A stretch of DNA of 32,000 nt from Candidatus Heimdallarchaeota archaeon (GTDB lineage Archaea; Asgardarchaeota; Heimdallarchaeia; Heimdallarchaeales; Heimdallarchaeaceae): assembly GCA_019057815.1 (NCBI GenBank), contig JAHLWR010000013.1:39542-71541 (forward strand), read 5' to 3'. Position 1 is the first letter of the stretch. Every line of letters begins with the position of its first letter. Both the position numbers and the translations under genes were made by a program. Below the pieces are notes generated by a model that saw only the letters and a program-made list of their open reading frames with translations, did not search any database and was not told where the DNA came from. This document shows, piece by piece, positions 8,145 to 8,364 of this stretch.

Positions 8145-8168
8145 GTTCGTCTTTCTCTCAACAGTGTT

Positions 8169-8291
8169 TTCAGGTTCGGAATGAGTCTGAGTGTTACTCC
8201 TTCACTATGGCCGCGACGTATCGCAGCTAATAACCCTTCCCAAGACCTCGCGGATCTTAGTACCAAGCCACACGTGGAAGGACTTAACTTT
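8169..8291 (-). rRNA. 5S rRNA gene in circularly permuted order: 3' half (8291->8221), UACG cap (8220->8217), 5' half (8216->8171)
   Basis: The minus strand reads AAAGUUAAGUCCUUCCACGUGUGGCUUGGUACUAAGAUCCGCGAGGUCUUGGGAAGGGUUAUUAGCUGCGA-UACG-UCGCGGCCAUAGUGAAGGAGUAACACUCAGACUCAUUCCGAACCUG. Rejoined in canonical order it aligns almost position-for-position with archaeal 5S (GGCCAYAGUGA..CAACAC..GACUCAUUYCGAAC..AAGUUAAG..GGUAC..GCGAG..UGGGA). Helices I, II, III and IV/V all pair. The exact termini are uncertain. Confidence 0.85.
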
Positions 8292-8296
8292 CCTGT

Positions 8297-8319
8297 GCAT
8301 CCGGAACGCGTCCAGATAC
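8297..8319 (-). other. 9-bp hairpin in the 5' flank of the permuted 5S gene
   Basis: The minus strand reads GUAUCUGGA-CGCGU-UCCGGAUGC, one nucleotide upstream of CAGGAAAGUUAAG. GC-rich relative to its surroundings. Confidence 0.6.
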
Positions 8320-8364
8320 TTACTGACATCGTTGAGATGTGACTAACTGGGAGAAAGGTTGTTT

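Follow-up and report, generated by a model that had tools for sequence, protein, structure and literature searches.

A permuted 5S rRNA gene in Heimdall-group Asgard archaea with a bulge-helix-bulge-type motif at its ends

The 5S rRNA is treated as an essentially constant molecule, and yet a whole archaeal lineage encodes it in a permuted form. The example described here lies in a stretch of 32,000 nucleotides from Candidatus Heimdallarchaeota archaeon (contig JAHLWR010000013.1, positions 39,542 to 71,541), referred to below as the window. On its minus strand, at 8289-8169, the 3' half of the 5S (AGUUAAG...GCUGCGA) comes first, UACG comes next and the 5' half (UCGCGGCCAUAG...CAUUCCGAACCUGAA) comes last. 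A leader and a trailer flank this gene and can pair with each other, and a motif of the bulge-helix-bulge (BHB) type is found at the new ends of the 5S. The features of the locus are as follows, where P1 is the outer leader-trailer helix, P2 is a leader hairpin, H is the central helix of the BHB and MFE stands for minimum free energy.

8169 to 8289, minus strand: permuted 5S rRNA, 121 nt (3' half, helix I with a tetraloop cap, 5' half)
8217 to 8220, minus strand: UACG tetraloop capping helix I, in the place of the two termini of a normal 5S
8187 to 8190, minus strand: UCAG, the internal strand on the 5' side of helix III, which pairs with CUGA 8173-8170 in the mature molecule and competes with H in the precursor, where the BHB conformer is 0.9-2.1 kcal/mol above the MFE
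8326 to 8337, minus strand: 5' (leader) strand of P1, UCUCAACGAUGU, 11 of 12 positions pairing with 8167-8156
8156 to 8167, minus strand: 3' (trailer) strand of P1, ACACUGUUGAGA, forming a contiguous leader-trailer helix that is contained in the MFE fold of the precursor
8320 to 8325, minus strand: junction strand CAGUAA, between P1 and P2
8297 to 8319, minus strand: P2, a 9-bp hairpin (8319-8311 with 8305-8297) with loop CGCGU, which makes a three-way junction
8292 to 8295, minus strand: CAGG, leader strand of H, pairing with CCUG 8174-8171; A8296 lies between P2 and H
8289 to 8291, minus strand: 5' bulge AAA, with a predicted cut at 8290/8289 that makes A8289 the new 5' end
8171 to 8174, minus strand: CCUG, 3' strand of H, belonging to the mature 5S
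8168 to 8170, minus strand: 3' bulge AAA, with a predicted cut at 8169/8168 that makes A8169 the new 3' end
8365 to 8373, minus strand: TTTTTAAGG, a possible TATA-like box of archaeal type, tentatively assigned by its position in the sequence (some 28-36 nt upstream of P1)
8140 to 8144, minus strand: U5 run past the trailer that is likely to be a terminator of archaeal type

A 5S gene in back-to-front order

Once the two halves are reordered, the window sequence folds into the standard 5S three-way junction, and the five helices, loop A (CCAUAG), loop C (CAUUCCGAAC), the loop E region (GUAC) and the AA bulge of helix III with GUUAAG are all present. In helix I, 8227-8221 is paired with 8216-8210, and the termini of the molecule are not at the end of this helix. 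Its loop is a UNCG tetraloop in 44 of 51 copies (UGCG in 19, UUCG in 17 and UACG in 8), and in these copies only the four loop nucleotides, with no spacer, stand between the native 5S ends. Helix I also covaries, as GCUGCGA/UCGCGGC is found against GCUGGAU/AUCCGGC in the loci L041 and L053. For the joined sequences of 22 diverse copies, RNAalifold recovered helices I-V with compensatory changes in 25 of 34 pairs. We regard it as virtually certain that the locus is a functional permuted 5S rRNA gene. A/T-rich boxes are found upstream of P1 in the relatives at a distance similar to that of the TATA-like box, and U5-U8 runs lie directly past their trailer helices. There is a good probability that the locus is transcribed as a unit of its own and that its circularly permuted 5S rRNA is processed at the BHB into a closed molecule, as set out below.

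The 5S gene has been described as easily identified in archaeal genomes. In genomic order, the Rfam model RF00001 called no 5S in the whole window at its gathering score (38 bits), and in a permissive E-value mode it gave 18.8 bits at the locus with coverage of essentially the 3' half alone; the gathering score was missed because the gene order is permuted. The Rfam model of the brown-algal mitochondrial permuted 5S (mtPerm-5S) had no match at the window locus either. Relatives were therefore sought with the DNA pattern GUUAAG..GUACU..CAYAG..CCGAAC, which matches the permuted order only. A scan of 185,579 species-representative genomes returned 36 places, 31 of which are true permuted 5S loci in 28 assemblies, and a metagenome scan added 19 more, giving 50 loci besides the window with the same gene order and break point. 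Nearly all genomic loci are labelled Heimdallarchaeota. The closed genomes of Ca. Heimdallarchaeum aukensis and Ca. H. endolithica carry two permuted copies each, and further true loci were found on a closed Freyarchaeota chromosome (L004), in an unclassified archaeon (L009) and in two divergent Heimdall metagenome-assembled genomes (L017 and L020). The permuted 5S is a lineage-wide trait. Rfam made no 5S call in any of the 18 relatives scanned, and the authors of both closed Heimdallarchaeum genomes stated that the 5S could not be predicted; the permuted gene accounts for the 5S genes that seemed to be missing there. Quality criteria for metagenome-assembled genomes that require a 5S would penalise Heimdall genomes.

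A decayed tandem 5S repeat or a mis-assembly, with the real 5S elsewhere in the genome, could produce a similar order, and one database entry shows that such cases occur. In L021 (MCBE01000241.1, labelled Altiarchaeales), two copies of a canonical 5S flank a run of N, probably as an artefact of scaffolding, and this locus was rejected as a permuted gene. For the window and its relatives, this explanation has a negligible probability. The arrangement is common to 50 loci, including the two closed long-read genomes with two copies each, in which no canonical 5S can be predicted, and strong purifying selection is seen with compensatory changes in all helices. The leader resembles CCAUAGUGAAGG...UCAGAC by eye, and leader and trailer might be decayed 5S halves left by a tandem duplication; when the flanks were locally aligned and compared with shuffles, however, the similarity to the 5S halves was not significant in most lineages (p 0.03-0.99), and the idea was dropped.

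Some other matches of the pattern were set aside as chance matches that are not 5S, namely L002, L005, L018, L032 and L039 (four in the genome scan, one in the metagenomes); among them, L002 (JAPCJO010000011.1) has a Thaumarchaeota label. The locus L016 (JBHLQZ010000003.1) carries a Thorarchaeota label with a 5S locus of the main Heimdall type, and may be mislabelled or mis-binned. A 93-aa open reading frame (ORF) with an ATG start (8048-8329, minus strand) crosses the whole 5S gene and the trailer in the window. Equivalent spurious ORFs of relatives (P0001-P0003) sit in a public protein collection as unnamed proteins, so the unrecognised 5S is being annotated as protein-coding.

Leader-trailer pairing and the BHB-type motif

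The rule for cleavage can be read from a second RNA gene in the window:

7953 to 8042, plus strand: tRNA-His(GUG) with a 16-nt BHB intron at 7989-8004, the control for the cleavage rule and a synteny marker of the window-type 5S paralog

In this tRNA, the central helix is formed by CUGU 7983-7986 with GCAG 7999-8002, and the bulges are GG/U and AC/A. A cut after bulge nucleotide 2 on both strands removes the 16-nt intron at the standard position 37/38. The initial annotation had read the same rule (a 4-bp helix, 3-nt bulges and cleavage after the second bulge nucleotide) from this intron, and the coordinates bear it out.

The 5S flanks of the window contain a 4-bp central helix and two 3-nt bulges on opposite strands, each of them located 3' of an H strand. 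On the trailer side, the bulge is exactly 3 nt long, between G8171 and A8167, which pairs with U8326. The elements on which the initial annotation was built, CAGG and CCUG with their AAA bulges, UCUCAA, UUGAGA, CAGU, ACUG and the 9-bp hairpin, were all found on the minus strand at its coordinates. Its outer pairing stood in part: UCUCAA/UUGAGA falls within P1, while the proposed pairing of CAGU 8325-8322 with ACUG 8165-8162 was rejected, being paired in only 59% of the homologous alignment cells, and is replaced by the contiguous P1 (8337-8326 with 8167-8156). When the flanks of the window alone were shuffled, a 4-bp helix in the register that gives the canonical length arose by chance in 3.3% of cases, and H together with an outer helix of at least 11 of 12 pairs placed right after a 3-nt trailer bulge had a frequency of 8e-5.

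Conservation of the leader-trailer pairings in orthologous loci had been proposed from the outset as a check of the motif, and the outcome was positive. In an alignment of 24 hairpin-type relatives (A1), on which the pairing counts for P1, P2 and H are based, 97.7% of the cells of P1 are paired and 10 of its 11 aligned pairs show compensatory double changes. P2 is paired in 89% of cells, with compensatory changes in 4 of 9 pairs. Slid-register controls gave pairing in 23-50% of cells. The sequence of P1 is wholly different among four subfamilies, and its start always lies 0-1 nt past the AAA. H is paired in all 24 copies (CAGG or CGGG with CCUG); it shows no compensatory double changes within A1, only A or G opposite U. 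Between lineages, H does covary, as CAGG or CGGG/CCUG, CGUG/CACG, CCGG/CCGG, CGAG/CUCG and CCAG/CUGG. Covariation ties the 3' strand of helix III to two sequences: to the leader in the precursor and, in the mature molecule, to the internal 5' strand (columns 31-34 with 48-51). In the other lineages, the motif has the following forms, with the P value from shuffled flanks:

L004 and L042 (Freya): leader CGUCGCUG-CGUG-AAA; 3' side CACG-GAA (GAU in L042)-CAGCGACG; P 9e-5 and 7e-5
L009: leader GGGUG-CCGG-AGG; 3' side CCGG-AAA-CACCC; P 8e-5
L017: leader GCUCUUAGAA-CGAG-AAA; 3' side CUCG-AUU-UUCUAAGAGC; P 4e-5
L020: leader CCAG-AAA; 3' side CUGG-AUU, with an interrupted outer helix; P 6e-3
L015 type (Heimdallarchaeum): leader GUGGU-CAGG-AAA; 3' side CCUG-AAA-ACCAC; P 8e-4

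Five of these forms (L004, L042, L009, L017 and the L015 type) are textbook BHBs, whose outer helices of 5-10 bp (8, 8, 5, 10 and 5, respectively) are adjacent and come after a bulge of exactly 3 nt. In the L015 type, the hairpin is placed 5 bp further out. The permuted loci form a natural variant series from the textbook BHB through a BHB beside a hairpin to a BHB in a three-way junction, which could serve for the study of EndA substrate tolerance. A near-palindromic CCGG-AA at the break site may, as an idea, have favoured the origin of the BHB.

An alternative is that P1 is an ordinary processing stem, that the ends are made by other nucleases (RNase E-like enzymes of the FAU-1 family, exonucleases) and that CAGG/CCUG is incidental. 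Members of this family do process pre-5S in Thermococcales, H has a chance expectation of 3-8% in the window alone, and the window motif is not a strict BHB. This alternative is nevertheless very improbable, since none of the 24 aligned copies leaves H unpaired, since five further lineages show covariation of H with the 5S 3' strand next to exact 3-nt bulges and adjacent outer helices, and since differing registers converge on one junction length.

In the copies with CGGG (leaders of the L006 type, -8 to -3 from GUUAAG), CGGGA is complementary to UUCCG of loop C. The pairing forms in some constrained folds, is impossible with the CAGG of the window and is probably incidental.

Predicted joining and the fate of the ends

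Covariation supports a precursor fold in which the leader and the trailer pair as P1, and the last four leader bases, CAGG, pair with CCUG, the future 3' strand of helix III. Two 3-nt bulges are thereby presented across a 4-bp helix, a BHB which in the window is relaxed by P2 on one strand. The permuted order, the functional 5S fold, the conservation and covariation of the BHB and a junction of canonical length are shown by the sequences, and the following course of processing is inferred. The splicing endonuclease EndA would cut past bulge nucleotide 2, at 8290/8289 and at 8169/8168, and would release an RNA running from A8289 with a 5'-OH to A8169 with a 2',3'-cyclic phosphate. RtcB, the tRNA ligase, would join A8169 to A8289, and CCUG would switch from the leader CAGG to the internal UCAG. 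The predicted result is a covalently closed 5S of 121 nt, in which helix III (AA bulge, GUUAAG) is exactly canonical and helix I is capped by the UNCG loop. Cleavage by EndA at the motif, for which the rule was checked by analogy on the tRNA-His intron, is very likely, and ligation of the ends is likely.

The length of the junction fits this prediction. In the window, the main clade, the Freya loci and L009, CCGAAC and GUUAAG end up 6 nt apart under the rule, although the two ends contribute differently (5+1 or 6+0); the rule-derived molecule is 121 nt long in 47 of 51 copies. The predicted junction is ...CAUUCCGAACCUGAA/AGUUAAGYCC... in the Heimdall type (...CCGAACCUGAA joined to AGUUAAG...) and ...CCGAACACGGA/AGUUAAGCUC... 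in the Freya type. A covariance model built from the BHB-joined sequences (R1) matched the unpermuted Altiarchaeales 5S of L021 over positions 1-121 with 87.4 bits (E 1.7e-24), and the alignment was gap-free and of high confidence through CCGAAC-GCAGAA-GUUAAG. On the genomic order of the window, R1 gave split matches only (50.3 and 31.6 bits). The initial annotation had expected the tRNA-intron rule to yield a junction of canonical length, and the 6 nt and this indel-free alignment agree with it.

Several observations weigh against EndA cleavage and closure as set out above. The window motif is a relaxed BHB in a three-way junction and not a strict one: P1 abuts the trailer bulge, whereas on the leader side 30 nt (the 6-nt junction strand, the 23-nt P2 and A8296) lie between P1 and H. 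There is also no inner helix in the window and in most lineages (0 bp; 3 bp, GUU/AAC, in L017 and L020), its position being occupied by the folded 5S body; the initial annotation had already recognised the hairpin inserted on the leader side and the lack of an inner helix, and had described the outer part as not a textbook BHB. P1, P2 and the 5S body are all present in the MFE fold and in the RNAalifold structure, yet both choose the mature helix III over H. In L017 and L020, the rule gives a junction of 7 nt, 1 nt longer. The search pattern is blind to collinear genes, and the absence of a canonical copy rests on the statement of the authors of the closed genomes. The leader CAG 8325-8323 (columns 20-22 of A1) is invariant in 24 of 24 hairpin-type relatives despite the full turnover of P1, and can pair with CUG 8173-8171, the target of H itself. 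A profile of the peptide that would span the junction, searched against 5.8 billion predicted proteins, retrieved only the genomic-order ORFs P0001-P0003, a negative that is uninformative. Furthermore, the conservation of the bulge A residues is equally expected if the ends stayed unligated.

The BHB conformer lies about 1-3 kcal/mol above the MFE, so that folding cannot choose between H and the mature helix III. Asgard archaea, including Heimdall AB_125 (the source of locus L008), have an (alpha-beta)2-type EndA carrying an L1 loop, which has been linked to a broad BHB specificity (PMC5829648), and the archaeal RNAs excised at BHBs, namely tRNA introns, pre-16S and pre-23S, occur as circles (PMC3326292). 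Because the Asgard enzyme is of a type that tolerates relaxed motifs, the cost of the conformer is low and BHB-excised RNAs are generally circular, the relaxed motif of the window is a plausible EndA substrate.

Two other registers for the leader were considered. UCAG with CUGA would give a circle with an insert of about 35 nt in helix III, and one of its pairs is lost in 5 of 24 copies, which have GCAG. CAG with CUG is invariant and hence uninformative, and was kept as an unexplained conserved element; the L015 type, with its adjacent outer helix, lacks the CAG after P1.

The RNA might also be cut at both bulges and never ligated, leaving a permuted, nicked linear 5S of 121 nt whose helix III is broken in its 3' strand and whose fold holds. 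As the 5' strand of helix III is continuous, the nick would detach nothing, and the brown-algal mitochondrial 5S likewise stays permuted in its final product. The canonical number of bulge nucleotides would be selected in a nicked molecule as well, and the search for junction-spanning ORFs gave no junction evidence. Against this stand the ends that EndA leaves, a 2',3'-cyclic phosphate and a 5'-OH, which are the substrate of RtcB and are here held side by side, the finding that all BHB-excised archaeal RNAs examined so far are circularised, and the position of the break in the AA bulge of helix III. This bulge is a protein-contact site of the 5S. On balance, the nicked form is unlikely.

The circle may instead be an intermediate that is reopened in the helix I loop to restore the termini of a canonical 5S. 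There is precedent for this: permuted tRNAs of Cyanidioschyzon pass through a circle as they mature, and several archaea linearise their circular pre-16S and pre-23S again. In 44 of 51 copies of the permuted 5S, however, nothing but the UNCG tetraloop connects the native ends, neither a spacer nor a processing signal being present, and selection for a thermostable tetraloop argues for its retention. In Escherichia coli, an engineered permuted 5S with tetraloop-joined native ends gave functional ribosomes (Huang et al., 2020; PMC7283268), which shows that a helix I closed in this way works there. Reopening is thus quite improbable, and the spacer-free UNCG cap and the tolerance in E. coli favour a circular mature 5S. 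That the closed circle is the final ribosomal form is a reading we lean towards slightly; the whole proposal, that the mature ribosomal 5S of Heimdall- and Freya-group Asgard archaea is a closed 121-nt circle made by EndA and RtcB from a back-to-front gene, stands at an even balance.

If the circle is real, it would be the first naturally circular 5S rRNA, a circular 5S would be expected in the ribosome, and ribosome production would depend on the splicing machinery. It would also extend the substrate range of BHB, EndA and RtcB to the 5S, the one rRNA said to bypass this pathway.

Known systems and the neighbourhood of the locus

The closest likeness is to archaeal pre-16S and pre-23S rRNA, where a leader-trailer helix carries a BHB at the rRNA boundaries, EndA cuts after bulge nucleotide 2 and a circle is formed with RtcB. 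The circularisation of these precursors has been described, and the 5S was explicitly said not to be processed through a circle. In pre-16S and pre-23S, the gene is collinear and the junction falls in a spacer or an extended helix 1, whereas the permuted gene of the window would have a junction that rebuilds the internal helix III. In Pyrococcus and Thermococcus, BHB circularisation alters the topology of the large-subunit rRNA as well; there, the gene is collinear, its circle is opened again at H98 and the mature 23S is therefore permuted, while in the window a permuted gene would lead to a circle of canonical order. Circles of the size of the 5S were detected by circRNA-seq in Sulfolobus, Halobacterium and P. 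abyssi. These come from collinear 5S genes with no BHB, are minor, failed RT-PCR validation and may be degradation products; no BHB is known for the 5S, and 5S circles, if real, form without one.

Permuted tRNA genes exist in Thermofilum. In Cyanidioschyzon merolae, permuted tRNA genes have the 3' half first and are expressed through a circular RNA (Soma et al., as reported in a citing paper). They resemble the window in the 3' half upstream of the 5' half and in a motif of BHB type at the termini of the precursor, and differ in that RNase P and tRNase Z remove the intervening sequence to give a linear product, whereas the rRNA of the window has only a UNCG tetraloop there. With nothing but the tetraloop separating the native ends, the circle is probably the end product here, unlike in permuted tRNAs. 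The brown-algal mtPerm-5S is likewise a natural 5S that has its termini outside helix I and is missed by standard models. In the algal RNA, a 5' hairpin stands in for helix I, the ends are at the junction of the alpha and gamma domains, no BHB is present and the product is permuted and linear; the RNA of the window is broken in the helix III bulge, keeps an intact helix I under its cap and has a splice signal that predicts re-joining. The engineered 5S of E. coli is artificial, has its new ends in loop C or D and is fused into the 23S, being neither free nor circular. No description of a permuted or BHB-flanked archaeal 5S was found in the literature searched, in which subscription journals were incompletely covered, so that a prior description is possible.

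Heimdallarchaeota have two conserved 5S loci that are paralogs of each other. The locus with a linked tRNA-Ser(GCU) is found in the main clade, L015 and L024, and the locus with a linked tRNA-His(GUG) in the window, L011, L019 and L028. In the window and L011, the tRNA-His and the 5S converge, whereas in L019 and L028 they share a strand; the tRNA-His of L028 is 75 nt long and apparently intronless. Further along the window, a giant ORF of 6010 aa (9831-27863, minus strand) is directly preceded, with a 4-nt overlap, by an ORF of 1306 aa (27860-31780, minus strand) that had no Pfam match. Small GTPases of the Ras/Roc family lie on both sides of the RNA gene cluster, at 6779-7294 on the plus strand and 9069-9602 on the minus strand (Pfam E-values 1e-38 and 1e-50). 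Ras-family GTPases are a typical eukaryotic-signature feature of Asgard archaea, and these two genes, together with a GC content of 32%, point to an Asgard archaeon as the source of the window.

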